This document shows positions 32,798 through 46,932 of a stretch of 64,000 nucleotides of DNA, in pieces (positions within the stretch are counted from its first letter, which is position 1; each line of letters begins with the position of its first letter). Where the stretch lies: positions 104,930-168,929 of the forward strand of contig JASGMJ010000005.1 in NCBI GenBank assembly GCA_030156535.1. The letters are read 5' to 3'. Position numbers and translations under genes: made by a program. The notes under the pieces were generated by a model. That model saw only the letters and a list, made by a program, of their open reading frames with translations, was not told the DNA's origin and searched no databases. Source of the stretch: Candidatus Sumerlaeota bacterium (GTDB taxonomy: Bacteria; Sumerlaeota; Sumerlaeia; SLMS01; JAHLLQ01).

Positions 32798-34486
32798 ATG
32801 TCCGATACCATCACCCGTATGATCGCCGCACGCCAGCTTCTCCAGGCTGACGCACGAGCATTTGCAGACGCACATCCCGGAGTGGAGGAACCGGCGGAAG
32901 AGGAAGTTCTCCGCTGGCTGGCCGAGGAGTATGGCTGCCGCTTCAGCGATCTGACCGACGTCTCCCTCGAACGTGAAACGCTGGCGCTCTTTCCACCTCG
33001 CCTGCTGCTCCGGGAAGAGGTTCTCCCCCTCGTGCGTTCCGGCAATGTCGTCGAAGCAGCAACAAGCAGACTCTTCGCCCCCGAGGCCTTCGAGGGCCTG
33101 CGCCTTGTCACCGGCCTGACGATTCGTCCGGTGCTTGCTCCTTCCACGGCGATTCAACGCGAAATCAAGAAGTGGCTCGGCGTTGGCGCCGACACGATCG
33201 GCTCGATCGAGGAAGAGGAAGGCATCCAGGTCGTCAGCGATTCCGACGAGGACGAGGGCAATCTCGACGAAGCCGCCGAGGACGCCTCGATCATCCGCTT
33301 TGTCAATCAGGTGCTGACCGATGCCATCAACCTGCGGGCCTCCGACATTCACCTCGAACCGTTCGAGGACGAACTGCGGCTGCGCTACCGCGTCGATGGC
33401 GTCCTGCAGGAAATCCCCGTTCCCGCCAGTCTGAAACGCTTTCAGCCTGCCATCGTCTCGCGCATCAAAATTTTGAGTCACCTGGACATCGCGGAGAAAC
33501 GCCTGCCGCAGGACGGCCGCATCAAGATCCGCCTGGAGCAGCAGGAAGTCGACGTCCGCGTGTCCCTGATCCCCATGATCCACGGCGAAGGCGTCGTCAT
33601 GCGCCTGTTGCGCCAGGATCGCTCGCTCCAGTCCGTCGCCGATCTTGGCATGGCACCACACACCGAGGAGACCTTCCGCACGTTGCTGCGGCTGTCCCAC
33701 GGCATCGTACTCGTGACGGGGCCGACGGGGAGCGGCAAGTCCACCACGCTCTATTCCGCACTCACGGAAATCAACGACAGCATCCGCAAGATCATCACGA
33801 TCGAAGATCCCGTTGAGTACCACATCAAGGGCATCAACCAGATTCAGGTGAGCGAGAAGACCGGAATGACGTTCGCGCGTGGGCTGCGCTCGATCCTGCG
33901 TCACGATCCCGACGTGGTGCTTGTCGGCGAAATCCGCGACGCGGAAACGGCGCGCATCGCCGTGCAGGCATCGCTCACCGGGCACCTGGTTTTCTCCACG
34001 CTGCACACGAACGACGCGCCCACCGCTCCGACGCGCCTGGCCGACATGGGCATCGAGCCGTACCTCGTGGCCTCGTCACTCGAAGGCATTCTGGCCCAGC
34101 GTCTCGTGCGTGTTCTGTGCATGGAGTGCCGCGTCGAGGATCACAGCAGCGCCAGCGCCGCCTTCCGGAGCCAGATCGGCATGCCCGCCGGAGCGCACGT
34201 TTATGCTCCCGGCGGCTGCGAGCGTTGCCGCAAGACGGGGTTCTTTGGCCGGCGCGGCATCTTCGAGATGGTGCGCATCGACGACGAGTTTCGCGAACTG
34301 ATCCTGCGCACAAACTCGGCGCCTGCCCTTCGCGCGGAAGCACGCCGCAAGGGTATGCAGACGCTGGCCGAGGACGGCTGGCGGCTCGTTGCGCAGGGAG
34401 TCACTTCCCTCGACGAGGTTCTTCGTGTCAGCCAGGCGGACATCAGTTCGCTCGAGGCACTCCCAAACGGACATGGGGGCAAGTAG
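32798..34486 (+). CDS. gspE: Type II secretion / type IV pilus ATPase GspE/PilB family
   Basis: N-terminal GspE_N domain, Walker A GPTGSGKST, and the Asp/His boxes. C-terminal tetracysteine CMECRV...CERCRKTG. Confidence 0.9.
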   Translation: MSDTITRMIAARQLLQADARAFADAHPGVEEPAEEEVLRWLAEEYGCRFSDLTDVSLERETLALFPPRLLLREEVLPLVRSGNVVEAATSRLFAPEAFEGLRLVTGLTIRPVLAPSTAIQREIKKWLGVGADTIGSIEEEEGIQVVSDSDEDEGNLDEAAEDASIIRFVNQVLTDAINLRASDIHLEPFEDELRLRYRVDGVLQEIPVPASLKRFQPAIVSRIKILSHLDIAEKRLPQDGRIKIRLEQQEVDVRVSLIPMIHGEGVVMRLLRQDRSLQSVADLGMAPHTEETFRTLLRLSHGIVLVTGPTGSGKSTTLYSALTEINDSIRKIITIEDPVEYHIKGINQIQVSEKTGMTFARGLRSILRHDPDVVLVGEIRDAETARIAVQASLTGHLVFSTLHTNDAPTAPTRLADMGIEPYLVASSLEGILAQRLVRVLCMECRVEDHSSASAAFRSQIGMPAGAHVYAPGGCERCRKTGFFGRRGIFEMVRIDDEFRELILRTNSAPALRAEARRKGMQTLAEDGWRLVAQGVTSLDEVLRVSQADISSLEALPNGHGGK

Positions 34487-34489
34487 CTC

Positions 34490-35722
34490 ATGGGAGTCTT
34501 CGTCTACAAGGCGTTCAGCGAAACGGGGCAGATGACCGAGGGGCGCGTCGATGCTCCCGGCCGCCGCGAAGCGCTGCGGCTTCTTGAAGAACGCGGCCTG
34601 CGCCCCGTGCGCGTGGAGGATGCGGCGGGGCGTCCAGCCGAAAGCGAAACGGGTGGGTGGGATCCGTTGGCGATGCTGCGCGGACGCGTCACCGCGCGCG
34701 ACCGCGAACAGTTCACGCGCCAGCTTGCCAGCCTTCTCGCCGCCGGTGTTTCCCTCAGCCGTGCGTTGCAGATTCTTTCGCGCGAAAGCTCGCGCCCTCT
34801 CATTGCCGCGCGGTGGAAACGCCTGCGCGAGATGGTGGTCGATGGCATGTCGCTGGCCGATGCGATGGCACGCCAGCCCGACGTTTTCCCGCGGATCGAC
34901 ACGGCCATGGTGCGCGCGGGTGAAACGGGCGGCTTCCTGCCGCTGGTTCTCGGGCAGGTGGCGGATTTTCAGTCGCGCGACCGCGAAGTGCGTTCGCGTC
35001 TCGTGTCGGCGATGACGTACCCGGCGGTGCTGATGGCGCTGACCGTGGCGGTGGTCATCTTCCTGATGACGTTCTTCATTCCGCGTTTCCAGACGATGTT
35101 CGAAGGACTGGGCGCGCCGTTGCCGTTGCTGACGCGGGCAATCATCGCGGCGAGCGAAGGCGTGCGCGACTGGGGACTGGTCGTGGCGGCGGTGCTGGTG
35201 ATTGCGCTGGTGGCCGCGCGGCAATGGATCGCATCGCCGGCGGGGCGGCGTTCCTGGCAGACCTTCGCCCTGCGCATGCCGCTCTTCGGTTCGCTCGCGG
35301 CACGTTTCGCCGCCACGCGCTTCTGCCGGATGCTCGGGACGCTCAGCCGCTCGGGCGTCGAACTCATCACGGCGTTGCAGGTTTCGCGCGAATCGCTCGG
35401 CAATCAGGTGCTGATCGACACGCTGACATCCTCCATCGAAAACGTGCGCAAGGGCGAGTCGCTGGCGCGCAGCCTGGCCGCCTGCGAGCGCCTGTTCCCC
35501 CCTTCGACGATCGAGATGATCGCCGTGGCCGAGGAATCCAGCCGCCTCGATCAGGAACTCGTGCGCATCGCCGAGGAATCCGAGAAGGATCTCGACGGGC
35601 AACTGCGGCTCGCCGTCGCCCTCGCCGAGCCGGCCTTGCTCTTCGTGATGGCGGCGGTCATCGGCACGATTTTTATCGGCATGGTCCTGCCGATCTTCAC
35701 CATCCAGGACTACATCAAATAA
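34490..35722 (+). CDS. gspF: Type II secretion system platform protein GspF/PilC family
   Basis: Two T2SSF repeats and 3 TM helices; begins 4 nt after the gspE stop. Confidence 0.9.
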   Translation: MGVFVYKAFSETGQMTEGRVDAPGRREALRLLEERGLRPVRVEDAAGRPAESETGGWDPLAMLRGRVTARDREQFTRQLASLLAAGVSLSRALQILSRESSRPLIAARWKRLREMVVDGMSLADAMARQPDVFPRIDTAMVRAGETGGFLPLVLGQVADFQSRDREVRSRLVSAMTYPAVLMALTVAVVIFLMTFFIPRFQTMFEGLGAPLPLLTRAIIAASEGVRDWGLVVAAVLVIALVAARQWIASPAGRRSWQTFALRMPLFGSLAARFAATRFCRMLGTLSRSGVELITALQVSRESLGNQVLIDTLTSSIENVRKGESLARSLAACERLFPPSTIEMIAVAEESSRLDQELVRIAEESEKDLDGQLRLAVALAEPALLFVMAAVIGTIFIGMVLPIFTIQDYIK

Positions 35723-35745
35723 CCCTCGGAAGAAGGAGTGGCACC

Positions 35746-36174
35746 ATGAGTCTGTTGCATCGCACCACGCGCGTTTCGCGGCGGGCCTTCTCGCTCGTCG
35801 AAATGCTTCTGGTCCTCGTGATCCTCGCGACGCTGGCGGCGATCGTGATTCCGCGCTTTGCGGGACGCAGCGAGCAGGCCAAGGAAACCGCCGCCAAGAC
35901 GCAGATCAGCGCGCTTTCCACCGCACTCGATTCCTTCGAGGTCGACAACGGCTACTTCCCCAGCAGCAGCGACGGTCTCAACGAACTCATCGTGCAACCC
36001 GATGGCGCAACGAACTGGCGCGGGCCCTACATGAAGCAGGGAATCCCCAATGATCCCTGGGGCGCGGCCTACCTGTACGAATATCCCGGCACGAACAACG
36101 CCGACGGATACGACCTCTCCTCGATGGGGCCGGACGGCCGCGCGGGCACGGAAGACGACATCACGAATTGGTAG
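35746..36174 (+). CDS. gspG: Major pseudopilin GspG
   Basis: GAAGGAG before the ATG. Prepilin leader and helix RRAFSLVEMLLVLVILATLAAIVIPRFAG. GspG signature QISALSTALDSFEVDNGYFPSS. Confidence 0.85.
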   Translation: MSLLHRTTRVSRRAFSLVEMLLVLVILATLAAIVIPRFAGRSEQAKETAAKTQISALSTALDSFEVDNGYFPSSSDGLNELIVQPDGATNWRGPYMKQGIPNDPWGAAYLYEYPGTNNADGYDLSSMGPDGRAGTEDDITNW

Positions 36175-36183
36175 GCGAAAGCA

Positions 36184-36675
36184 ATGACTCGGCGGCAACA
36201 CATCGCGGCACGCGGGCAAGAGGGCTTCACGCTGATGGAGCTGATGGTGGTGCTCGCCCTGCTGTCGGTGATCGCGGCGCTCGTTGCTCCGCAGCTTCGC
36301 GGTTTTGTCACCGGGCGCGCGAGCACCGAGGAGTGCCGCCGCTTTGCCGCACTTACCGAGTACGCGCGCGAGCACGCCATCGGCAACGCCGTGCGTGTGG
36401 CGCTCTGGGTTGACGAGGACGGCGATTCCTATGGCCTGCGCGACACGCGCACCTCGCGCGACATCTATACGTACCAAACCGCGACCGGCCTGACGATCAC
36501 GCCCTTCGACGAGGAAGGGGAAGCCCTTGAGGAGGATACGGAACTCGTGATCTGGCCGGATGGCGAAATCGACTTCGAAAGTCCCGCTTCCTACCACATC
36601 GACGAGAAGGGAACGACGGTCTTCGTCATTGAGCTGAACGAGAACGGAACGCGCTACGAGGTGACGACGCCATGA
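36184..36675 (+). CDS. Minor pseudopilin, GspH-like
   Basis: Class III signal G-FTLMELMVVLALL; size and operon position match GspH. Confidence 0.6.
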   Translation: MTRRQHIAARGQEGFTLMELMVVLALLSVIAALVAPQLRGFVTGRASTEECRRFAALTEYAREHAIGNAVRVALWVDEDGDSYGLRDTRTSRDIYTYQTATGLTITPFDEEGEALEEDTELVIWPDGEIDFESPASYHIDEKGTTVFVIELNENGTRYEVTTP

Positions 36676-37058
36676 GACTCGCGCTCCATCCACGCGGAAT
36701 GACGTTCGTCGAGCTCCTTGCCTCGATGCTGCTGCTCTCCATCGTGCTGCCCGTCACGGTCGGCGCGATTCTGTACGCGAACCGTACCTCCTCCATGGCC
36801 GTGCGCAAACGCGACGCGGCGTTCCTGGCCGACCAGATTCTCCAGGAAGTCATCGGCACGGAGTCGTGGGAGGATGGCGATCAGAGCGGCGAGTTCGAGG
36901 ACGACTTTGCGGGATGGACCTGGGAGATGACCGTTTCGTCATGGGACGTCGAAGCCATGCAGCAGGTCGACGTCACGGTGTTCTATCCCGTGCAGGGCAC
37001 GACATACTCCGAAACGCTCACACGCCTTGTGATGGCGGAGGAGGAAGAGGAGTCGTGA
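36672..37058 (+). CDS. Minor pseudopilin, GspI-like
   Basis: G-MTFVELLASMLLL prepilin motif. The ATGA start overlaps the upstream stop. Confidence 0.55.
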   Translation: MRLALHPRGMTFVELLASMLLLSIVLPVTVGAILYANRTSSMAVRKRDAAFLADQILQEVIGTESWEDGDQSGEFEDDFAGWTWEMTVSSWDVEAMQQVDVTVFYPVQGTTYSETLTRLVMAEEEEES

Positions 37059-37738
37059 AACGCACCCGTGGCTTCACGCTGATTGAGACGCTGCTCGCGC
37101 TGGGCATCGCCGCCACTCTGCTGGCCGCGGCGGTCTCCGTGCTCTTCGGTGCGGTGCGGATGCGCAGCGCGGCGGCCGAGCTCTCCGAGGAGAAGGGCGG
37201 CACACATCGCATTGCTTCCGTGATTCGCAGCGACCTCCAGAACGCGGTGGTGCCCGCCGGATTGCTCGCGGGCACGATGCTCCTGGAGTCCGACGGCTCC
37301 GAAGACACCGCGATGGACACACTGGAATTTTACACCGCCTCAGGAACATTGAACGACAGCGAACCCTGGGCTGACATCCGCCGCGTGGAGTACCTCCTCG
37401 ACACCGAGAGCGAAAGCGCGACCGGCGGGGCCTATCCGTTCATCCGCCGCGAAACGGTGAACCTGCTCGCCTCCACCGAGGACGACGAGGACACGCGCGA
37501 CACCGTGCTGCTTGCCGAAGCAACCGGCCTTTCCATCGAGTGCTTCGACGGCGAGGTCTGGTCGGAAACGTGGGACTCCACGGTGGTCGAAAACGAAAAC
37601 CCGGTTCTCGTGAGTCTGACCGTGACACCCGCCGAGGGCAATTCCCTGGTTTTTCTTCAGCATCTGACGACTCAGCCCCGCCCCACTGCCACGGCAGCGG
37701 CAGCGGCTCCATCCCAACAAACGGGAGATGAGCCATGA
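37055..37738 (+). CDS. Minor pseudopilin, GspJ-like
   Basis: GTG start overlapping the upstream TGA and preceded by GGAGGAGGAAGAGGAG. Prepilin motif G-FTLIETLLALGIA. Confidence 0.55.
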   Translation: MKRTRGFTLIETLLALGIAATLLAAAVSVLFGAVRMRSAAAELSEEKGGTHRIASVIRSDLQNAVVPAGLLAGTMLLESDGSEDTAMDTLEFYTASGTLNDSEPWADIRRVEYLLDTESESATGGAYPFIRRETVNLLASTEDDEDTRDTVLLAEATGLSIECFDGEVWSETWDSTVVENENPVLVSLTVTPAEGNSLVFLQHLTTQPRPTATAAAAAPSQQTGDEP

Positions 37739-39072
37739 TGCCGCGCCGCCGCCGTGCCATTGTCTTTGTCGTGCTTCTCTGGGTCATCTCCACGATGGTT
37801 TCCACGGCAATCTACTTTGGTCATTCCGCCCGCATGGCCTACCTCGCGAGCGAGAACAGCGTCGCCGGTCTTCAGGCGGTGCATGCCATCGACTCCGCCA
37901 TCGAGTACGTGCGCTTTGCACTCGAAACCATCGACGAAACCGGCAAAGTGCCGGACCTCGAAGAGGAGGGGTACGCCGTCGAGAACGTTGCTGTCGGTGA
38001 AGCGCACTTCTGGCTGCTTGGCATGGATCATGACGCCCTCCAGACACCGACGGAGTTGACCTTCAGTCTCGTCGATGAAGCATCGAAACTGAACATCAAC
38101 ACAGCGGAACTTGAAATGCTCGAAGCGCTCCCCGATATGACGGCTGAGTTCGCCGCCGCCATCGTGGACTGGCGCGACGAGGACAGCGACCTCACCACCA
38201 ACGGCGCCGAGTCCCAGGACTACCTCCTTCTCGACACGCCGTACCTTTGCAAGGATGCGCCCTTCGAAAGCGTCGAGGAATTGCGCCTCGTCCAGGGCGC
38301 CGATCTTACCCTGCTCTTCGGGGAGGATGAAAACCGCAACGGTATCCTCGATCCCAACGAGGACGACGGCGACGAACTGTGGCCGCCCGACGACGCCGAC
38401 GGCCAACTCGACACCGGGATCGTGCGTTTTCTGACGGCGCATTCACGCGAACCGAACACGCGCGATGACGGCAGCGCGAAGGTGAACCTCAGGGGGGAGT
38501 CTGCGCGCGTTGATCTGCAACAGCTTCTTATCGAAACCCTCGGCCAGAGCGTTGCCGACCGGGTGATGGAAAGCCTTGGTCCCGAGCTCACCGATGTCGG
38601 CAGTCCGCTGGAGTTCTACCAACTCAGTGGCCTCTCGGCGACAGAGTTCGCGCAGATCGAGGACGCCCTCACGATTGAGAGTGGCGATTACCGTACGGGT
38701 CTCGTGAACGTGGCGACGGCACCGAGTGAAGTGCTCGCGTGCCTGCCCGGTATGACGTCGGAGAAGGCGATTGAACTCGTTGAAGCAAGAGCATCCCTCG
38801 ACGAAACCACACTCGAAAGCACCGCCTGGCTGACCACCGTCCTCGACGCGGACACCGTCGCACTGGTGGGTCCGTTCGTCACGAGCCGCTCCTATCAGTT
38901 CGGCCTCGACATCGCCGCAACGGGACGGAACGGGCGCGGCGTGCGCCGCACGTTCGCGGTGCTCGACGTGGAGGACGAGGCGCGGGTGATTTACCGACGC
39001 GATCTGGCCCGCGCCGGATGGCCACTGGACGACGACACCATGGCGGCACTGCGCGAAGGGACGGAACAATGA
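37735..39072 (+). CDS. gspK: Minor pseudopilin GspK
   Basis: N-terminal hydrophobic helix lacking Glu5. The GspK-characteristic KLNINTA motif is present, plus an acidic calcium-site-like region. Confidence 0.7.
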   Translation: MMPRRRRAIVFVVLLWVISTMVSTAIYFGHSARMAYLASENSVAGLQAVHAIDSAIEYVRFALETIDETGKVPDLEEEGYAVENVAVGEAHFWLLGMDHDALQTPTELTFSLVDEASKLNINTAELEMLEALPDMTAEFAAAIVDWRDEDSDLTTNGAESQDYLLLDTPYLCKDAPFESVEELRLVQGADLTLLFGEDENRNGILDPNEDDGDELWPPDDADGQLDTGIVRFLTAHSREPNTRDDGSAKVNLRGESARVDLQQLLIETLGQSVADRVMESLGPELTDVGSPLEFYQLSGLSATEFAQIEDALTIESGDYRTGLVNVATAPSEVLACLPGMTSEKAIELVEARASLDETTLESTAWLTTVLDADTVALVGPFVTSRSYQFGLDIAATGRNGRGVRRTFAVLDVEDEARVIYRRDLARAGWPLDDDTMAALREGTEQ

Positions 39073-40463
39073 CTGGAAGCATGACGCCCATGCGACGCAA
39101 GAACTCGCGCCTGCTGGTTATCGAGCTTCGGCCCGGCTGGGTGCGGGCCACCGAATGCCACGCGGGAAACACAACGGACGCTCCATTGCGCTCGGTTATG
39201 GGCGAACTCTCGTGTGATCCCTTTGGGGGCGATCCCGAAACGGCGGGAGCGGAAATTCGTCTCTTGCTGGAACAGGGTGGTCTTCGCCCTGGCGCTGCCA
39301 TCGTCACGGTGCCCATGGCATGGACGATGACGCACGCCTTCGAAGCCCCCGAGCTTTCCGCCGAGGATTTTGCCAGTCTCCTGGAACTCGAAGCAGAAAA
39401 GGCGTTCCCCTACCCGCCGGAGGACATGGTCCTCTCGCAGACGCGCTGCACGCGCGCGGACGCACCGGATATCGCCATTGCCGCGGCCATGCCGACAGCG
39501 AAGCTCGACGCGCTCGAAGCCGTTCTGCGCGCTGCCCACATCGCGCCTTTGGCCATCGTTCCCGCCTGCGTCCATGCACACGGCGAAGCCGCCAATGGCG
39601 TGTCCCTCATCGCCGAAGGGCACGACCTGGTGCTTTGCATCGCGTCGGACGGCGGGTTGCTGGCCCTGCGCGTTCTCTGCAAGATGGAACCCGGCGCGGG
39701 CATCGAGGACGAAGCACTGCGTGCCGACATTCTCAGGGAACTGCGCGTGGCCCTGCGCACGCTGCCCGAGGAATTGGCGGAAGCGAGGACAACCGTTGCG
39801 GTTCACGCGCCGCTGGAACTTGCCGCACGCCTCGCCGAGCAGCTTGGCCCGCAGGCCGGACGCATGGGCATTTCCGTCAAGGCCGTGCCATCGCCACCCG
39901 ACGAAATTGCAAGGAGGCTTTCCGCCGCCGCTTTTGAGGGCCAGGCGTTGACGGTCAATTTCCTCCGTCCCCGCATTACGCGCTGGCAACGGCACCTGGC
40001 ATCAATGCGCCGCAAGGGCTTCGTCGTCCGCGCCGCGATCGTGGGCGCCTCGCTTCTTGCCATAGCCGTGCTCGTCTTCGCCGCACACACGTGGCGGGCA
40101 CGTTATCTCGATGCGAAGTGGCTCGCCATGCGCGACGGCGTTGCCAGCGTCGAAAGCTATGAGAAGGACATCCGCGCATGGCGTCCGTGGAACGATGCGA
40201 GCGCACCAAGCCTCGACCTGCTCAAGAGCATCACCGAGGCCTTTCCGGTATCCGGCGAAGTAACCGCGAGCACGCTGCACATTAAGGACCAAACGACGGT
40301 GACCTGCACGGGCACGGCAACGTCGGCGAGTAGTTTCAGCCGATTCCAGGAAGCGCTCGGCGCACGCCCGGGAGTCTCCAACTTGAAAGTGCAACAAATG
40401 CGGGGAGACTCACCCGTTCAGTTCAGCCTGTCGTTTACGTGGAACCCCAGGGGGAAGACATGA
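39069..40463 (+). CDS. T2SS inner-membrane component, GspL / PilM-PilN-like (actin-fold N-domain + TM + periplasmic domain)
   Basis: ATGA overlap with gspK. A cytoplasmic actin-like domain is followed by the TM segment VVRAAIVGASLLAIAVLVFAA and a periplasmic C-terminal region. Confidence 0.55.
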   Translation: MTGSMTPMRRKNSRLLVIELRPGWVRATECHAGNTTDAPLRSVMGELSCDPFGGDPETAGAEIRLLLEQGGLRPGAAIVTVPMAWTMTHAFEAPELSAEDFASLLELEAEKAFPYPPEDMVLSQTRCTRADAPDIAIAAAMPTAKLDALEAVLRAAHIAPLAIVPACVHAHGEAANGVSLIAEGHDLVLCIASDGGLLALRVLCKMEPGAGIEDEALRADILRELRVALRTLPEELAEARTTVAVHAPLELAARLAEQLGPQAGRMGISVKAVPSPPDEIARRLSAAAFEGQALTVNFLRPRITRWQRHLASMRRKGFVVRAAIVGASLLAIAVLVFAAHTWRARYLDAKWLAMRDGVASVESYEKDIRAWRPWNDASAPSLDLLKSITEAFPVSGEVTASTLHIKDQTTVTCTGTATSASSFSRFQEALGARPGVSNLKVQQMRGDSPVQFSLSFTWNPRGKT

Positions 40464-40993
40464 GAGCGGACAAACGCCGACGGCTTCTGCTGATACTCGC
40501 CGCCTGTGGATTGGGCGTGCTGCTGCTCGACGCAGTTGTCGTGCGACCCTTGCTTGCCATTTGGGACAAGCAGGCGGCGCGCATCGTGCAACGCACGCAG
40601 GACATCGAGCGCGGCACCGCCCTTCTCGAACGAGAGGAAGACATCGCCGCGCGCTGGAAGGAAATGCGCGAGAGTTCGCTTCCCGCCGACACGGCGCGAG
40701 CCGAGGCACTCGTGCTCGATGCCATGACGAAGTGGGCGTCAGCCAGCGGCCTGAGCATTTCAAGCGTCCGCCCCCGGTGGGTCGAGATGAAGGACGTGGG
40801 CGACCGCTTCGAGATTCGCCTCTCGGCGGAAGGCGACATCGCGGCGCTGACGCGCTTTCTCTTTGAACTGGAAACCGCCAAGCTCCCGCTCTATCTCGAC
40901 GAAACACAGATTCGCGCACGCGACGAAAACGGCAGGAGCCTGGGAGTGGATCTCGTTTTCTCCGCGCTGCGCATCGAGGGGGCAAATACATGA
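40460..40993 (+). CDS. T2SS GspM/PilO-like bitopic protein
   Basis: ATGA overlap with the upstream gene. Short cytoplasmic N-terminus, a single TM (LLLILAACGLGVLLL) and a periplasmic ferredoxin-like region. Confidence 0.5.
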   Translation: MRADKRRRLLLILAACGLGVLLLDAVVVRPLLAIWDKQAARIVQRTQDIERGTALLEREEDIAARWKEMRESSLPADTARAEALVLDAMTKWASASGLSISSVRPRWVEMKDVGDRFEIRLSAEGDIAALTRFLFELETAKLPLYLDETQIRARDENGRSLGVDLVFSALRIEGANT

Positions 40994-41535
40994 AGCGCCG
41001 AAACCTCGCCGTTCTTGTCCTTGCACTGATCGCGTTCTCCGGCCTGCTGGCTGCGCAGTCGGGCACAACGAAGAATGCCTCATCAGGCACGACCCTATCG
41101 CTCGATACGTACAGCATCATCATCGAGCGCAACATCTTCAACCCCACGCGCCGCGCTCCCAGTTCACGTCCCGCACCGCCCGTCTCAAGGGCTCCGGCCG
41201 TCACGACGATCACGCTGATCGGTGCCGTCGTGAAGGAGGACGAGCGGACGGCGATCTTCTCGTCCGCCGTCACCGAGCACGCGGGGCATCGCAAGACGGG
41301 CGACAGCATCGCGGGCTTTACCATCGAATCCATCGACACGAAGGGCGTCACCATCTCGATCGACGGCGATACGAAGCTCTGGGCCGTTGGCTCGATCCTC
41401 CGCCGCATCGACGACGGCGACTGGTACCTCCCCCAGGCCGCCGGTGCCGCCACGGACATCACGAAAGACCCAGCCGCGGAAGCGGCCATTCTGAAACGCA
41501 TGCGCGAACGCCGCGAGCAGGAGAAGGCAAAATGA
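40990..41535 (+). CDS. Periplasmic T2SS accessory protein (GspC/PilP-like)
   Basis: Signal peptide MKRRNLAVLVLALIAFSGLLAAQ, a Pro-rich linker and a small beta domain. Both ends are coupled by overlap. Confidence 0.4.
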   Translation: MKRRNLAVLVLALIAFSGLLAAQSGTTKNASSGTTLSLDTYSIIIERNIFNPTRRAPSSRPAPPVSRAPAVTTITLIGAVVKEDERTAIFSSAVTEHAGHRKTGDSIAGFTIESIDTKGVTISIDGDTKLWAVGSILRRIDDGDWYLPQAAGAATDITKDPAAEAAILKRMRERREQEKAK

Positions 41536-42998
41536 CCACCCGACGCCACATTGCCGGTTTGCTGATGATCGGTTTTCTCGCCACGGCTTCACTGGCGGCC
41601 CAGGAACCCGACACCACCACCGGGATACTCGGCACCACCGAGGCATCCCCCGATACCACGACGCCACAGACAGCTGAAATCAGCTTCAACTTCCGCGGCG
41701 CCACCATCGACACCGTGCTCGACTACCTCAGTGAGGCCGCGGGGTTTGCCGTCGTCACCACGGTTCCGCTCAGCGGAACCATCGACGTCATCAGCCACCG
41801 TCCCCTCAATCCCGAGGAGTCGCTCGAACTCGTGACGACGATCCTTCACGAGAAGGGCTATGCGGCGTTGAGATCGGGGAACACGCTGACCATCGTCAGC
41901 CGCGAGGATGCCAAGCAGCGCGACATTCCCGTGCGCCAGGGCTCGGACCCGTTGACCATTCCGAAAAACGACGAAATGGTGACGCAGATCATTCCGATCC
42001 GCTACAGCCAGGCATCCGAACTCGTCGAGAACCTGCGCCCCCTCCTGCCGTCCTACTCCACGATCTCGGCCAACGAGGGAAGCAACGCGATCCTGCTGAC
42101 GGACACGCAGGCGAACATCCGCCGCGTCGCTGAGATTATCACGGCACTCGACAAGTCCTTCAGCGAGATCACCACCGTGAAAGTCTTCCAGCTTCGTCAT
42201 GCCGATGCCAAGGAGACCGCAACTCTCATCACCGAACTCTTCGAGCAGGAAACGACGAGCGGCAGTAGCAGCAACAGCCGCCAGCTTCCGCCGTTCTTCC
42301 GGCGCGGGGGCGACGACGGCGACAGGCAGAGCAGCAGTAGCACCCAGAATGCCGTCGTCCAGGCATCCTCGCGCGTGACTGCAACCGCCGACGAACGCAC
42401 CAACTCCCTCGTCGTCGCGGCGCCTCCGCAACTCATCACGACCATCGAGGAGCTTATCGCCACCCTCGATCTTTCCACGGAAATCCTCACCGAGGTGCGC
42501 GTCTTCCCCCTGAAGTACGCCGACGCCGAGGAGATGGCGGACGTCATCACGGAGATCTTCGCGGCCGATTCCACCACACAATCCACCACGAACTCCCGCA
42601 GCAATGTGCGCATCGGCTTTCGTGGGCCAGGGGGGAGAGCTCCGGGAGGAAACACCGTAAGCAACAGCGAGCAGAGTGAACGCGAGCAGGAATCCGCCAC
42701 CGTCCTCGCCGTCGCCGACACGCGCACCAACAGCGTCGTCGTCAGCGCCGTCAGCGATGTGCTGACCCAGATCGCCGGCGTCGTCCATGAACTCGACCGC
42801 GATCCCGCCGGCACGAAGAAGGTCTACGTCTATTCCCTGAAGAACGCCAACCCCGAGGAAGTTTCCGAGCTCCTCGACGAAATGTTCGGCAGCACCAGCA
42901 GCTCCAGCAGCTCACGAACAAGTACGAGCAACACCAGCTCCCGCAACACCACGAACACCACCAACACAAACCGCAATACGAACACAACCAACCGCTAA
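41532..42998 (+). CDS. Secretin N-terminal domains protein (N0-N1-N2-N3) with a Ser/Thr/Asn-rich C-terminal tail; lacks the secretin channel domain
   Basis: Signal peptide MTTRRHIAGLLMIGFLATASLAAQEP. N0-like domain ISFNFRGATIDTVLDYLSEAAGFAVV...GYAALRSGNTLTIV, followed by three secretin_N-like repeats. Low-complexity tail STSSSSSSRTSTSNTSSRNTTNTTNTNRNTNTTNR, then TAA. Confidence 0.7.
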   Translation: MTTRRHIAGLLMIGFLATASLAAQEPDTTTGILGTTEASPDTTTPQTAEISFNFRGATIDTVLDYLSEAAGFAVVTTVPLSGTIDVISHRPLNPEESLELVTTILHEKGYAALRSGNTLTIVSREDAKQRDIPVRQGSDPLTIPKNDEMVTQIIPIRYSQASELVENLRPLLPSYSTISANEGSNAILLTDTQANIRRVAEIITALDKSFSEITTVKVFQLRHADAKETATLITELFEQETTSGSSSNSRQLPPFFRRGGDDGDRQSSSSTQNAVVQASSRVTATADERTNSLVVAAPPQLITTIEELIATLDLSTEILTEVRVFPLKYADAEEMADVITEIFAADSTTQSTTNSRSNVRIGFRGPGGRAPGGNTVSNSEQSEREQESATVLAVADTRTNSVVVSAVSDVLTQIAGVVHELDRDPAGTKKVYVYSLKNANPEEVSELLDEMFGSTSSSSSSRTSTSNTSSRNTTNTTNTNRNTNTTNR

Positions 42999-43030
42999 AC
43001 ATGCCGCCAGAAACGCGAGGAACAGACATC

Positions 43031-44080
43031 ATGGCCAGCATCCGCTCCGTACTCCAACCCGCCCTCTGCACCACTGCCCTTCTTCTTGCGGGCACACTGG
43101 CATCGGCTCAGGAGCCCACCTTGGAACCTTCCGGGGTGCGCGGCAATCTCGGCACCAACCTCAGCGGCGATACCATTGTGCGCTACGACCTCGAAACGGA
43201 CTCGATCATCGTCATCACCGACGAGGAAACAAATGCACAGATCGCCTCGCTGATCGAAACGCTCGATCGCCCCGTTCCCCAGGTTCTCATCAAGGTGCTC
43301 TTCCTCGAAGTCACACACACGGACGACCTCGATCTTGGAGTCGAAGCCAGTTACTCGTTCGACGCTGGGACCGACTCGCTGCTCACGGATTTCGGAGTCG
43401 CCAGCGCCTCGCGCGGCGGCTTCCTCAAAATCATCGAGGACGACCTCAGCGTCACGCTCCGCGCCCTTGCCGGTCAGGGGAAACTTGAAGTCCTCTCGCG
43501 CCCCTCTGTCATCGCGCGGAACAATGAACTCGCGACGATCACCATCGGCCAGGAAGTCCCCTTCATCCGCAACTCCCGCGTCACCGACAGCGGCCAGACG
43601 ATCAACACGATCGAGTACGAGGACATCGGCATCATCCTGGAAGTGACGCCACACATCACGCCCGACCGCCTGGTCGAAATGGAAGTTGCTCCGGAGATCT
43701 CGACGCTGACCAGCGAGTCCGTCGCCATTACCGACACAACCGATGCCCGGGTGATTGCCAAGCGCTCGGCGAGCACCCGCGTCGTCGTCGCCGACGGAAA
43801 GACCGTTGTCATCGGCGGGCTGATGGAGGACAATATGACTGAGTCTGTCTCCAAGGTCCCCCTGCTCGGCGACATTCCCCTTGTCGGTGCCCTCTTTCGC
43901 AGGACGATCAAGGAGAAGAGCAAGACGGAGCTTCTGATCTTCCTGACGCCGACGGTGGTGACGGGGGTCGAAGATCTGGAGACGCTGACCGATTCAGAGC
44001 GCGCGCAGTTCGACATCGTTCCCACCGCCTTCGATGGCGTTGACATGCCGGACTACCTCCCTCCGCTGCCCGAGGATTGA
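43031..44080 (+). CDS. gspD: Secretin (GspD/PilQ family) C-terminal channel protein with its own signal peptide and one N-domain
   Basis: GAGGAA sits 9 nt before the ATG. Signal peptide MASIRSVLQPALCTTALLLAGTLASAQEP. Secretin core VLSRPSVIARNNELATITIGQEVPFI...VVIGGLMEDNMTESVSKVPLLGDIPLVGALFRRT. Confidence 0.85.
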   Translation: MASIRSVLQPALCTTALLLAGTLASAQEPTLEPSGVRGNLGTNLSGDTIVRYDLETDSIIVITDEETNAQIASLIETLDRPVPQVLIKVLFLEVTHTDDLDLGVEASYSFDAGTDSLLTDFGVASASRGGFLKIIEDDLSVTLRALAGQGKLEVLSRPSVIARNNELATITIGQEVPFIRNSRVTDSGQTINTIEYEDIGIILEVTPHITPDRLVEMEVAPEISTLTSESVAITDTTDARVIAKRSASTRVVVADGKTVVIGGLMEDNMTESVSKVPLLGDIPLVGALFRRTIKEKSKTELLIFLTPTVVTGVEDLETLTDSERAQFDIVPTAFDGVDMPDYLPPLPED

Positions 44081-44083
44081 CGC

Positions 44084-45568
44084 ATGGTGCACGCCGAGCC
44101 CAAGGAACGTTTGCTCTGGCCCATCCGCATCGGCCTCGCCGGCGTCTGGATCGGCATCGTCGTCCTTCTGGCCGTCGAATACGGCCGCGTGCGCGAGCAG
44201 GCGCGCGACAACCTGCTCCAGCGTGCCCGCGACATCAGTGATACGATCGCCCTCATCAGCCGCTCGGGCCGCATCGGCATGATCCGCGAGGATCGCCTGA
44301 AGGCCACCCTCGATGAGCTCGTTCGCGGCGAACTCCTGCGCTCCGTGATGCTTGTCAACGCCCTGGGCGAAACGGTTGTCGCGGCTGGAGAGCCCGGCGC
44401 CAGCCCCCCCCAACTCCCTCACTCGGGCGTCCGATGGGAGCCCGACCGCGTCATCGTGACCAACGTCGTGGACCTCGGTGCCGACGAGGCCAGCGACTCG
44501 CGCCCGCGCAACCCGACCATCGTCATCCCTGAGTCCAAGGACGACGAGCGCATACGCCCTCCCCGTCCCGAGGATGCCCCCACGTCGCCGACTACCGAGG
44601 CGCCGCCACCGGGCGACGGAGGATGGGATCGCAAGCGCCATCCGTTTGGCCGCCCTCCCTGGATTTCCGAATCAGAGTTCCGCGATCTGATTGAACGCCG
44701 CGGCGTTCACGGTTTCGTCCTGACGCTGAATACGGCGGGCATGAACCGCGAACTGAACCGCGATCTCCGGATGCGCACGCTGCTCGCGTTTGTCGCGTTG
44801 CTTGCCGTCGGCGGCATTGGCGTCGCTGTCTCCTCCTGGAGCCGGTTCAACCGTCTGCTTCTCCGGCTTGTCCGCAGCCAGCAGCAGAACGAGCACCTGA
44901 AGGAAATGAACCTGGCCGCCGCTGGCCTTGCCCACGAAACGCGCAATCCCCTGAATCTGATTCGGGGCCTGGCACAGACAATGGCCCAGCAGGAAGACAC
45001 CTCGCCGGAGACCCGCGACCGCTCGCGCCAGATCGTCGAGGAACTCGACAGAGTCACTTACCGCCTCAATGAGTTCATCCGCTACTCCAAGCCGCCGCAG
45101 CCACGCCTCGCGCCTGTCGATCCCTCAGCCGTCGCGGAGAACGTGCGCGATGCCCTGGCCGCGGACCTCGAAGAGAGACACGCAGCCATCCGCTTCGAAG
45201 GCGGCCCCGCAACCGTCGAGGCCGACGAGATGCTCCTGCGCCAGTTGCTCTTCAACCTGTTGCTCAACGCTGTCCAGGCCGTGGGCGAGGAGGGTGAAAT
45301 CGTCGTGACAACGAAGCAGCAGGCGGACCGCACTCTCACGCTCTCCGTCGAAGACAACGGTCCCGGGGTCCCGGCGGAACTGCGCGACGAAATCTTCCGT
45401 CCCTACATGACAACGAACGCCGCGGGGAGCGGCCTTGGCCTTGCCGTGGTCCGCCAGATTTGCGCTGCCCACGACTGGCGAATTGTGTGTACGGAATCGG
45501 CACTGGGCGGCGCGTGCTTCACCGTCAGCGCCATGCGGCCGGGTGGGAAGGCGAGTCCGGCTTCATGA
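44084..45568 (+). CDS. Sensor histidine kinase (PilS/NtrB-like) with a periplasmic sensor domain
   Basis: Two TM helices flank a periplasmic region of about 200 aa. H-box LAHETRNPLNLIRGL. HATPase N, G1 and G2 boxes (NLLLNAVQA, DNGPGV, GSGLGLAVV). Confidence 0.85.
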   Translation: MVHAEPKERLLWPIRIGLAGVWIGIVVLLAVEYGRVREQARDNLLQRARDISDTIALISRSGRIGMIREDRLKATLDELVRGELLRSVMLVNALGETVVAAGEPGASPPQLPHSGVRWEPDRVIVTNVVDLGADEASDSRPRNPTIVIPESKDDERIRPPRPEDAPTSPTTEAPPPGDGGWDRKRHPFGRPPWISESEFRDLIERRGVHGFVLTLNTAGMNRELNRDLRMRTLLAFVALLAVGGIGVAVSSWSRFNRLLLRLVRSQQQNEHLKEMNLAAAGLAHETRNPLNLIRGLAQTMAQQEDTSPETRDRSRQIVEELDRVTYRLNEFIRYSKPPQPRLAPVDPSAVAENVRDALAADLEERHAAIRFEGGPATVEADEMLLRQLLFNLLLNAVQAVGEEGEIVVTTKQQADRTLTLSVEDNGPGVPAELRDEIFRPYMTTNAAGSGLGLAVVRQICAAHDWRIVCTESALGGACFTVSAMRPGGKASPAS

Positions 45569-46932
45569 CCACACCTGCCCCTCCCAAAGTTCTTGTCGTC
45601 GACGACGACGCTGGCAATCGCCGCCTGCTGTCCGGGTGCCTGACGCATCACGGCTACGAGGTCGTTCAGGCCACCGACGGCGAGAATGCCCTCGAAGTGT
45701 TGCGCTCAACTCCTGCCAGCCTGGTTGTCTCTGACATTCGAATGCCACGCATGACGGGGCTCGATCTTCTGCACGCCCTGCGCGATGCCGGCTCCGGCGT
45801 TCCCGTGCTCCTCGTCACGGCCTACCCCGACGTGCGCGATGCCGTCGGCGCCATGCGCGACGGCGCCGTGAACTACCTGGAGAAGCCGATCGACCTCGAC
45901 GAGTTCCTCGCGTCGGTGCGCAATGCCCTGAAGACGCCAGCCGGCGCGGCGCCCGCCTCGGATTTGAGTGCGCTCGTGCCGCCCCATGGCATGATCGCCG
46001 AGAGCCCCGCCATGAAGGCCATCCTGCGCGACATCGCGATCGCCGGGCCGTCGGACTCGCGCGTGTTGCTCACGGGCGAGAGCGGCACGGGGAAGGAAGT
46101 TGTGGCCGACGCGCTGCATGCGGCCAGCCCGCGCGCCTCCGCGCCCTTCATCAAGGTCAACTGCGCCGCGATTCCCGAGCACCTTCTCGAAAGCGAGCTC
46201 TACGGCCACGAGAAGGGGGCGTTCACGGGAGCCGTGGCGCGCCGCATTGGTGTCTTCGAGGAAGCCCGCGGGGGCACGATCCTGCTCGACGAAATCGCGG
46301 AGATGCCCGCCTCGCTCCAGGCCAAGCTTCTGCGTGTGATTCAGGACGGCACTTTTCGCCGGATCGGCGGCTCGCAAACGCTCCAGACCGACGTGCGCCT
46401 GCTCGCCTCCACCAACCGCGATCTCGAGCAGGAAATGAGCGCGGGGCGCTTTCGCGAGGATCTCTTCTTCCGCCTCAACGTCTTCGAGATCCATCTGCCG
46501 CGCCTGCGCGACCGCCCCGAGGACATCGTCCCGCTGGCCACCCATTACGCCTCGCAGTTTCTCGGCGCCCGGGTACGCTTCTCCCCCGCCGCGATGGCGT
46601 TGCTGTGCACCTACACTTGGCCAGGCAATGTGCGTGAGCTGCGCAACGCGATGGAGCGCGCCGTGCTTCTCTCGCGCAGCGAAGTCATCATCCCGGAACA
46701 CCTGCCGCCACGCCTGCGCAGCGCCGCTCCTCCAGCGGACGAGCCTGCTCCGTCCGAGTCGTCCGGTGGCGTCATGGCCGAGGTCGAGCGCTCGGTGATT
46801 CTGGAGACCCTACGCAACAACCGGTTCAACCGCTCGGAGACGGCCCGCGCGCTCGGCATCAGCCGCCGCGCCCTGATCTACAAGCTGCAACGCTTCCGCG
46901 AGCAGGGCCACGCCGTGGATGAGGGAATGTGA
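45565..46932 (+). CDS. Sigma-54-dependent response regulator (NtrC/PilR family)
   Basis: REC domain [14 protein letters not shown]...D. AAA+ Walker [15 protein letters not shown] sigma-54 contact motif. C-terminal Fis-type HTH. The ATGA start overlaps the kinase stop. Confidence 0.9.

Follow-up and report, generated by a model that had tools for sequence, protein, structure and literature searches.

GspD forms a roughly 15-mer channel in the outer membrane through which folded proteins are secreted, and secretins are regarded as homomultimers of one long chain, with the N-domain rings covalently tied to the channel. In the stretch of Candidatus Sumerlaeota DNA analysed here (64,000 nucleotides, referred to as the window), the parts of such a protein are found in two consecutive genes, which raises the question of whether these are a recently broken gene or a secretin genuinely made as two polypeptides and, if the latter, where the chain is divided. 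A sequence-only reading had favoured two polypeptides, with the break between the N domains and the channel.

The two genes, ORF1 and ORF2, close a complete T2SS operon on the same strand, the preceding members of which were identified by Pfam and NCBIfam searches:

32798-34486, + strand, GspE gene (Pfam)
34490-35722, + strand, GspF gene (Pfam)
~35740-36174, + strand, GspG gene (Pfam)
36184-36675, + strand, GspH-like gene (N-methyl pilin-like candidate)
36672-37058, + strand, GspI gene (Pfam)
end at 37738, + strand, GspJ gene (Pfam)
37735-39072, + strand, GspK gene (Pfam)
end at 40463, + strand, GspL-like gene (weak PilM-like match, NCBIfam)
40439-40993, + strand, GspM gene (Pfam)
40990-41535, + strand, weak GspC-like gene (weak GspC_delta match, NCBIfam)

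Components E, F, G, I, J, K and M, as expected of a gsp operon, are all recognised by Pfam, and the GspC and GspL-like matches are weak. The start codon of ORF1 shares an ATGA overlap with the stop of the preceding gene, and domain searches found no further secretin within the 64-kb window. The features of ORF1, ORF2 and their junction are as follows:

41532..42998, + strand, ORF1, secretin N-piece, 488 aa (ATG 41532, TAA 42996-42998, frame 0)
41532..41600, + strand, predicted signal peptide of ORF1, aa 1-23, cleavage between LAA and QEP (sequence and heuristic)
41685..41885, + strand, N0 domain, ORF1 aa 52-118 (Pfam PF21305, E 4.8e-9)
41976..42794, + strand, three complete Secretin_N domains of ORF1 (Pfam PF03958, AF2)
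42819..42887, + strand, first half of a split fourth Secretin_N domain (beta1-alpha1, KVYVYSLKNANPEEVSELLDEMF), ORF1 aa ~430-452 (Pfam, AF2)
42888..42998, + strand, S/T/N-rich tail, ORF1 aa 453-488, with the TAA (sequence)
42999..43030, + strand, intergenic spacer of 32 nt with a GAGGAA RBS at 43017-43022 (sequence)
43031..44080, + strand, ORF2, secretin C-piece, 349 aa (ATG 43031, TGA 44078-44080, frame 2)
43031..43108, + strand, predicted signal peptide of ORF2, aa 1-26, cleavage between ASA and QEP (heuristic)
43109..43174, + strand, variable linker of the mature C-piece, ORF2 aa 27-48 (alignment; pLDDT <50)
43175..43267, + strand, second half of the split Secretin_N domain (beta2-beta3-alpha2), ORF2 aa 49-79 (Pfam, PDB alignment)
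43280..43960, + strand, secretin channel domain, barrel from ORF2 aa ~84 (Pfam PF00263, PDB phmmer, AF2 and Foldseek)
43961..44080, + strand, C-terminal tail, ORF2 aa 311-349, moderately conserved among C-pieces (alignment consensus)

ORF1, whose product is identical to the NCBI MAG protein P0121, has an N-terminus resembling a Sec signal peptide (MTTRRHIAGLLMIGFLATASLAA, followed by QEP), as judged by a heuristic of hydrophobicity, charge and a small-x-small motif rather than by SignalP. Its N0 domain aligns with the N0 of XcpQ and EpsD, as that of a GspD should, and secondary structure and pLDDT in AlphaFold2 (AF2) models delimit N1 (aa ~149-210), N2 (~215-314) and N3 (~321-421), with a low-complexity alpha1-beta2 loop in both N2 and N3. 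PF03958 matches the protein at 156 bits in four stretches. The signal peptide, N0 and three repeats described previously are thus all present, but half of a fourth Secretin_N domain at the end of the protein had been missed. The S/T/N tail beyond it is predicted with pLDDT <50.

ORF2 opens in another frame behind its GAGGAA sequence, just as had been read, across a gap of 32 nt; the GAGGAA ends 8 nt 5' of the ATG. Another in-frame ATG, at 43001, lacks a GAGGAA-like RBS, and NCBI annotates the identical protein (P0001) with a length of 349 aa, which corresponds to the 43031 start. A sequence pattern scan found no terminator-like or promoter-like site between ORF1 and ORF2. By the same heuristic, again not SignalP, the N-terminus of ORF2 resembles a Sec signal peptide (MASIRSVLQPALCTTALLLAGTLASA, followed by QEP), in agreement with the claim of an intact downstream signal peptide; a lipobox is absent from the N-termini of both proteins. 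The channel expected of a GspD is present (PF00263 at aa 145-310, E 7e-51), and phmmer matches ORF2 to GspD, XcpQ and PulD in the PDB at 1e-38 to 1e-42.

The GspD model TIGR02517 is covered only by the pair: ORF1 matches positions 1-335 with 232 bits and ORF2 positions 296-600 with 237 bits (NCBIfam), and neither reaches the equivalog cut-off of 351 bits. There is no single GspD polypeptide here; ORF1 and ORF2 jointly are one GspD secretin, with three complete Secretin_N repeats and one that is split. Because each half falls below the family threshold, automated surveys label such proteins 'hypothetical' or 'secretin N-terminal domain-containing protein'. The pair is not a type III secretin, as its context is a T2SS operon and GspD models score 232-237 bits against 51-119 bits for SctC models.

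The position of the break is seen in the partial domain matches. The region before the ORF1 tail matches only positions 2-34 of the Pfam Secretin_N model (22.8 bits), and the head of ORF2 only positions 27-69 (21.1 bits; 25-69 in the search with the whole protein), both below the threshold of 28.2 bits; joined in silico, the two give one match over positions 2-69 at 45.4 bits. The gene break therefore runs through the last Secretin_N domain, in the loop between alpha1 and beta2, and not along the boundary between the N domains and the channel as had been supposed. As the break lies inside an N domain, each protein bears an incomplete half-domain, and the "one N-domain" assigned to ORF2 is only a second half, beta2-beta3-alpha2, which aligns with the second half of N3 in XcpQ and GspD. 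The hydrophobic pattern of both half-domains is retained in 51/51 paired loci.

AF2 modelling of a tethered single-chain chimera of the two window proteins, with an alignment combining fused, N-piece and C-piece sequences (natural fused homologs being taken from a third protein search), is consistent with this division. Beta1 spans residues 386-391 of the chimera and alpha1 residues 397-408 (pLDDT blocks 74/90/86), the ORF2 half has pLDDT 77-90, and Foldseek returns classical GspD structures as the best fold matches. With ORF1 alone, beta1 is missing and the same blocks fall to 56/68/70, although alpha1 is still predicted to be helical and the intact N domains are unchanged; as fused homologs were in the chimera alignment but not in that of the control, the alignment may explain part of this pLDDT difference.

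This arrangement is not peculiar to one assembly. The 120 best relatives of ORF2, like those of ORF1 MAG or metagenome gene calls, are all separate proteins of 306-443 aa, and the 120 best relatives of ORF1 all lack PF00263 and are 446-612 aa long except for one of 789 aa; all 120 of the latter keep the beta1-alpha1 half at their C-terminus. Among 80 GTDB species-representative genomes surveyed, the secretin is encoded by two genes in 50 and by one fused gene in 27, the latter mostly Planctomycetota. Genomes with the split form belong to Sumerlaeota, Verrucomicrobiota including Akkermansia, Lentisphaeria, Kiritimatiellota and Omnitrophota. The N-piece gene is adjacent to the C-piece gene in every one of the 50 split loci, at a distance of 3-159 nt (median ~38) and with all three stop codons represented, and in about 46 loci the N-piece carries an S/T/N tail of 31-57 aa. 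Each of the 50 C-pieces starts with ATG or GTG and has a signal-peptide-like N-terminus, a feature that the heuristic also detects in 117/118 full-length C-piece relatives. The hydrophobic window of C-pieces has a median of 2.74, compared with 2.71 for bona fide signal peptides of N-pieces; in 93 fused proteins, the corresponding loop has no hydrophobic segment (median 0.94, maximum 1.74). The second signal peptide might have originated as a duplicate of the first, but the similarity of the two is just slightly higher within the same genome (24.4) than across genomes (21.0), a difference that may reflect composition alone.

In a neighbour-joining tree of the channel domain, split and fused forms fall into two clean clades, which would fit one ancient event; as the tree is midpoint-rooted, it does not prove whether the split form came from the fused one or the reverse. 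A continuous junction without the signal peptide occurs only in the separate fused clade and not within the split clade. The fused Planctomycetota proteins (P0393-P0511; L072 from Phycisphaerae, 815 aa; L035, 837 aa; L066, 924 aa) have ~50% channel identity and the same N0 and four N domains. They differ in being encoded by a single ORF, with an S/T/N/R/G loop at the exact break site that lacks a stop, a start codon and any hydrophobic segment; in L072, L035 and L066 this loop, of 33-90 aa, lies between the two halves in one chain. By these alignments, the S/T/N tail of ORF1 and the linker of ORF2 are remnants of the long, disordered alpha1-beta2 loop that is continuous in the fused relatives. 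Secretins in three pieces are also found, in Verrucomicrobiales (L062, L065 and L079) and in Sumerlaeota (L018 and L027), and in these a second N domain is cut at the same alpha1-beta2 loop, with another new signal peptide.

Several explanations of the two reading frames have to be set against these data. The differing frames, the 32 nt gap and the indel-prone low-complexity sequence are what a recent frameshift or nonsense mutation would leave, or an error of assembly, the source being a metagenome-assembled genome. We regard such a broken gene as extremely improbable, as 50 species-level genomes, drawn from at least five phyla, share this architecture, as do hundreds of protein clusters that come from independent assemblies, with evident purifying selection on both halves and conservation of the C-piece start codon, RBS and signal peptide. 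The reading of the pair as a true secretin of two polypeptides, and not as a frameshifted pseudogene, is thus upheld, both by the 50 of 80 genomes and by the 120 best relatives of each half. Programmed recoding, by a -1 frameshift or stop-codon readthrough, could alternatively produce one fused secretin of which the separate ORFs are a by-product. Frame 2 is open from ~42790, such that the proteins would be joined by a -1 shift in the tail, and 27 of the 50 split loci have both genes in the same frame with a single stop between them, a higher share than the expected one third (P = 0.002 in a binomial test without correction for phylogeny). However, descent from an in-frame ancestor explains this excess equally well, the other 23 loci are out of frame, and among the split loci as a whole the gap varies from 3 to 159 nt and all three stop codons are in use. 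Fusion would moreover place a hydrophobic signal-peptide segment inside a periplasmic loop, and the conserved start codon and n-, h- and c-regions of the C-piece would be without purpose in a readthrough product. We therefore consider recoding very unlikely.

It is also conceivable, though in our judgement unlikely, that both proteins are made but share no domain, the C-piece being a self-sufficient minimal secretin and the N-piece a separate ring or adaptor in the periplasm whose contact with it is loose, made through other surfaces, or absent. Short secretins with few N domains, such as RcpA and phage pIV, are known and were among the PDB matches, binding of the half-domains to each other is a prediction, and alpha1 is modelled as a helix with ORF1 alone. 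Against this, neither the beta-alpha unit of 23 residues nor the beta-beta-alpha unit of 31 can form a Secretin_N domain by itself, yet the conserved hydrophobic pattern of that domain is retained in both across phyla. The break falls in the same loop at three independent positions or lineages, beta1 and the higher confidence are obtained in AF2 only with the partner half, and the two genes are always adjacent.

The explanation that we consider likely is that the GspD of Candidatus Sumerlaeota is produced from two genes, the products of which are exported separately and rebuild the split domain in the periplasm. In this model both secretin genes would be co-transcribed, and each piece would be exported by Sec by way of its own cleavable signal peptide. 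The C-piece would form the outer-membrane channel, and the N-piece would contribute rings of N0 and three N domains reaching down toward the inner-membrane platform. The two would be joined non-covalently through the last N domain, contiguous with the channel, in which beta1-alpha1 of the N-piece would complement beta2-beta3-alpha2 of the mature C-piece to give one Secretin_N fold, presumably at 1:1 stoichiometry in the multimer, while the two low-complexity ends, as loop remnants, would be left free. More generally, we are inclined to think, with somewhat less assurance, that secretin N domains are natural split-and-reassemble modules, and that two separately exported chains, or three in certain lineages, dock through complementary half-domains at the alpha1-beta2 loop in the large clade of Verrucomicrobiota, Lentisphaerota, Kiritimatiellota, Omnitrophota and Sumerlaeota.

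Among known systems, the best sequence and fold matches are to classical GspD (PulD, XcpQ, EpsD and E. coli GspD; PDB 6hcg, 5wln, 5wq7 and 5wq8), which shares the gsp E-M operon context and the order of N0, Secretin_N repeats and channel; in XcpQ the channel-proximal N domain likewise has a loop after alpha1. Classical GspD is, however, one chain, whereas the Sumerlaeota secretin is two, with a second signal peptide, and has an additional N domain (N0 plus four), the last of which is bisected. Divided secretins have been described in Rhc-type T3SS, as rhcC1/nolW and rhcC2 in rhizobia and hrcIIC1/hrcIIC2 in Pseudomonas syringae, with three ORFs in Bradyrhizobium elkanii (PMC3574062, PMC3973906). 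[quoted passage not shown] Searches of full texts for a T2SS secretin in split or bipartite form gave only these Rhc T3SS papers. In the Akkermansia literature, the MUL2/Amuc_1098 PilQ cluster is a different system, and no mapping to the C-piece was obtained for Amuc_1638, from the outer-membrane proteome.

One practical consequence is that surveys may score T2SS of this kind as lacking an intact secretin. Akkermansia, whose secretion and pilus machines are actively studied, lies in the split clade, and the half-domains could become natural split-protein tags for the periplasm. For the secretin family, a conserved, phylum-scale secretin of two or three chains would show that covalent continuity is dispensable and that a break in the alpha1-beta2 loop is tolerated, and it would offer a natural system for the study of secretin ring assembly, peptidoglycan crossing and docking to the inner-membrane platform. 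If the more general view of N domains as split-and-reassemble modules is correct, each subunit would have two ends rich in S/T/N/G, free and disordered, in the periplasmic vestibule or near it, and the pore and the periplasmic rings could assemble from opposite sides of the cell wall, possibly being coupled or uncoupled on demand.

The operon for type II secretion is complete (GspE, F, G, a GspH-like pilin, I, J, K, a GspL-like protein, M and a weakly GspC-like protein) and ends with the secretin genes; no other secretin was found in the 64-kb window. The secretin genes and those that follow them are:

41532-42998, + strand: ORF1, ATG at 41532 to TAA at 42996-42998, 488 aa, frame 0
between ORF1 and ORF2, + strand: 32-nt spacer, with GAGGAA at 43017-43022, 8 nt 5' of the ORF2 ATG
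43031-44080, + strand: ORF2, ATG at 43031, 349 aa, frame 2
44084-45568, + strand: histidine kinase, directly 3' of the secretin genes
45565-46932, + strand: sigma-54-dependent response regulator, after the histidine kinase

By Pfam, ORF1 carries N0 and Secretin_N repeats, and ORF2 a secretin channel domain and, of Secretin_N, no more than model positions 25-69. On the 600-position GspD equivalog model of NCBIfam, ORF1 covers positions 1-335 (232 bits) and ORF2 positions 296-600 (237 bits), each below the cut-off of 351 bits; judged from these alignments, the proteins complement each other as parts of a single GspD. Genes of the operon often overlap by 4 nt (ATGA or similar; 36672-36675, 37735-37738, 40990-40993, 41532-41535), which suggests translational coupling. 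Unlike these overlaps, the ORF1-ORF2 junction has a spacer with its own Shine-Dalgarno site, and no terminator-like or promoter-like site was found within it. In an Akkermansia locus (L011:7049-8686) a homologous kinase also follows the gene for the channel-bearing C-piece, and a two-component system may be a conserved partner of this T2SS.

Proteins identical to ORF1 and ORF2 are encoded on a 178-kb contig of an NCBI MAG of Candidatus Sumerlaeota. Among database relatives, the best 120 of ORF2 all measure 306-443 aa, and the best 120 of ORF1 all lack a channel domain (446-612 aa, apart from one of 789 aa); several such N-piece/C-piece pairs have consecutive locus tags in NCBI records. A C-piece alignment was searched against a single genome of each GTDB species, and the 80 best loci were retained; by ORF and BLAST analysis they comprise 50 split, 27 fused (a single ORF of 630-1214 aa) and three cut by contig ends. 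Every one of the 50 split loci has the N-piece gene directly 5' of the C-piece gene, with 3-159 nt between them (median about 38). Split secretins occur in Sumerlaeota, Lentisphaeria, Kiritimatiellota, Omnitrophota and Verrucomicrobiota (Akkermansia, Opitutaceae, Chthoniobacterales, Pedosphaera/Limisphaerales); a continuous junction is found only in a separate fused clade, mainly of Planctomycetota. When the channel domains are placed in a neighbour-joining tree, split and fused proteins separate without exception into these two clades, which fits one ancient event, the direction of which is not fixed by the root of this midpoint-rooted tree.

This conservation excludes a recent frameshift or assembly error as the origin of the two ORFs, and the proposal of the sequence-only reading, a genuine two-polypeptide secretin rather than a pseudogene, is borne out; that ORF1 and ORF2 are such a secretin we regard as very nearly certain. 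Programmed recoding, which would yield one fused secretin, draws some support from the 27 of 50 split loci in which both pieces share one frame with a single stop between them, against an expected one third (binomial P = 0.002, uncorrected for phylogeny), although we read this excess as a likely vestige of a split that began in frame. Recoding is nevertheless unlikely, as frames, gap lengths and N-piece stop codons (TAA, TAG and TGA are all used) vary among split loci, whereas the downstream start (ATG, with one GTG) and the signal peptide of the C-piece are conserved.

The signal peptide that had been read on ORF2 is also predicted by a hydrophobicity heuristic (a 10-residue window, Kyte-Doolittle value at least 1.8). 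The ORF2 N-terminus is MASIRSVLQPALCTTALLLAGTLASA followed by QEP, with predicted cleavage between the two, and contains no lipobox. In all 50 split loci the C-piece begins with positive charge, then a hydrophobic stretch, then small-x-small, usually ending in AQ. The 1.8 threshold is reached by 117 of 118 full-length C-pieces, with a median best value of 2.74 versus 2.71 for the undisputed N-piece signal peptides, and in 0 of 93 fused homologs over the 70 residues before beta2 (median 0.94); a hydrophobic N-terminus therefore marks the split clade alone. It is conserved as a feature and not as a sequence, as is general for signal peptides.

The position of the break was misjudged in the sequence-only reading, which placed only whole N domains on either side of it, at the end of ORF1 and at the start of ORF2. 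ORF1 aa 420-488 match only Secretin_N positions 2-34 (22.8 bits), a beta1-alpha1 half, and ORF2 aa 28-90 only positions 27-69 (21.1 bits), the second half; each lies below the Pfam threshold of 28.2 bits, and joined in silico they match positions 2-69 at 45.4 bits. The alignment of ORF2 with XcpQ likewise begins inside the XcpQ N3 domain. All N-pieces end in a conserved beta1-alpha1, LD.NPAK.KKV[FY]VY.L.NAD...V..IL..MF, and an S/T/N/G/R-rich tail of 31-57 aa; all mature C-pieces open with a variable linker, followed by ..GDA.I.YDPETGSLIVITDEETN..I...I..LD.P.PQVLIKV, which is beta2-beta3-alpha2 leading directly into the channel. Fused Planctomycetota homologs (loci L072, L035 and L066) have both halves in one chain with a 33-90-residue S/T/N/R/G-rich loop between them, and the ORF1 tail and mature ORF2 linker are therefore the stumps of this loop. 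Of 120 N-piece relatives (P0121-P0240), 71 have Arg as their last residue and 16 have Phe, in tails of 12% Arg and 2% Phe; ORF1 also ends in Arg (codon 42993-42995).

At five loci the secretin is in three pieces, the N-piece being two genes:

L062:3908-7017, Verrucomicrobiales
L065:3892-7017, Verrucomicrobiales
L079:3850-6999, Verrucomicrobiales
L018:3474-7062, Sumerlaeota
L027:313-2679, Sumerlaeota

Here piece A ends in beta1-alpha1 of the N2 domain and a G/R/S-rich tail, and piece B has its own predicted signal peptide, starts at beta2-beta3-alpha2 and ends in the usual beta1-alpha1 and tail. The N2 halves match Secretin_N positions 2-26 and 25-65, and joined 2-65 (52 bits, Pfam), placing the second break in the alpha1-beta2 loop of N2. 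Because a similar break recurs at the matching loop of a different N domain, the comparison argues that this loop tolerates discontinuity of the chain through reassembly of the halves.

We modelled a chimera of ORF1 aa 45-488 and ORF2 aa 28-349, joined through their natural disordered ends, for which natural fused homologs serve as bridges in the alignment. In the model (mean pLDDT 75.9), N0 is followed by three complete beta-alpha-beta-beta-alpha domains whose loops are disordered, and these by the split domain, with beta1 at residues 386-391, alpha1 at 397-408 (pLDDT blocks 74/90/86), disorder at 414-460, and beta2, beta3 and alpha2 (pLDDT 77-90) before the barrel. Foldseek ranks PulD, GspD, ExeD and EpsD at the top (E down to 7e-38). 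With ORF1 alone the intact domains retain confidence, the blocks fall to 56/68/70 and beta1 loses its strand assignment; as DSSP requires a hydrogen-bonded partner, this points to pairing of beta1 with the ORF2 half-domain in the model, the comparison being of one tethered chain with alignments that differ between runs.

We propose that Sec would export both chains, each of which would then lose its signal peptide by cleavage, that the C-piece would insert in the outer membrane and form the channel there, its incomplete N domain hanging beneath, and that the N-piece (N0 and three N rings) would dock by donating beta1-alpha1 to this domain. The comparisons show that there are two genes, where the break lies and that it is conserved; cleavage, docking and stoichiometry are what we infer here. 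N0 of classical GspD is the docking domain for the platform and GspC. Complementation of the split domain in trans by the two chains is probable. Independent function of the two proteins, which would leave the conservation of two unfoldable half-domains unexplained, seems to us improbable.

Two genomes labelled Sumerlaeota (L020:4873-6960, L023:4843-6960) have a shorter fused secretin (696-706 aa, N0 and three N domains); it groups with sequences from Planctomycetota and could reflect a paralogous second system, transfer or mis-binning. Giant proteins of about 1500-5500 aa (P0282, P0316, P0321, P0334, P0336, P0341 and others) carry a C-terminal channel domain 31-43% identical to ORF2, some with up to 13 matched stretches.

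Jointly, ORF1 and ORF2 have every domain of classical GspD and are predicted to work alike, although the family model expects one polypeptide and each of the two scores below its cut-off. When full texts were searched for split or bipartite secretins of the T2SS, only papers on the Rhc-type T3SS came up, a different secretion system in which a split secretin is documented as rhcC1/nolW and rhcC2, genes that are not adjacent; there the secretin can also be three ORFs (B. elkanii, one P. syringae strain), and the significance of the split is stated as unknown (PMC3574062, PMC3973906). An entry in a supplementary table of PMC4960237 may be a C-piece ortholog and, if so, would provide protein-level evidence. 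Databases already carry these genes as 'secretin N-terminal domain-containing protein' or 'hypothetical protein'. The two-gene T2SS secretin is real and widespread, apparently undescribed in the literature searched, and the mechanism proposed for it is specific and testable.
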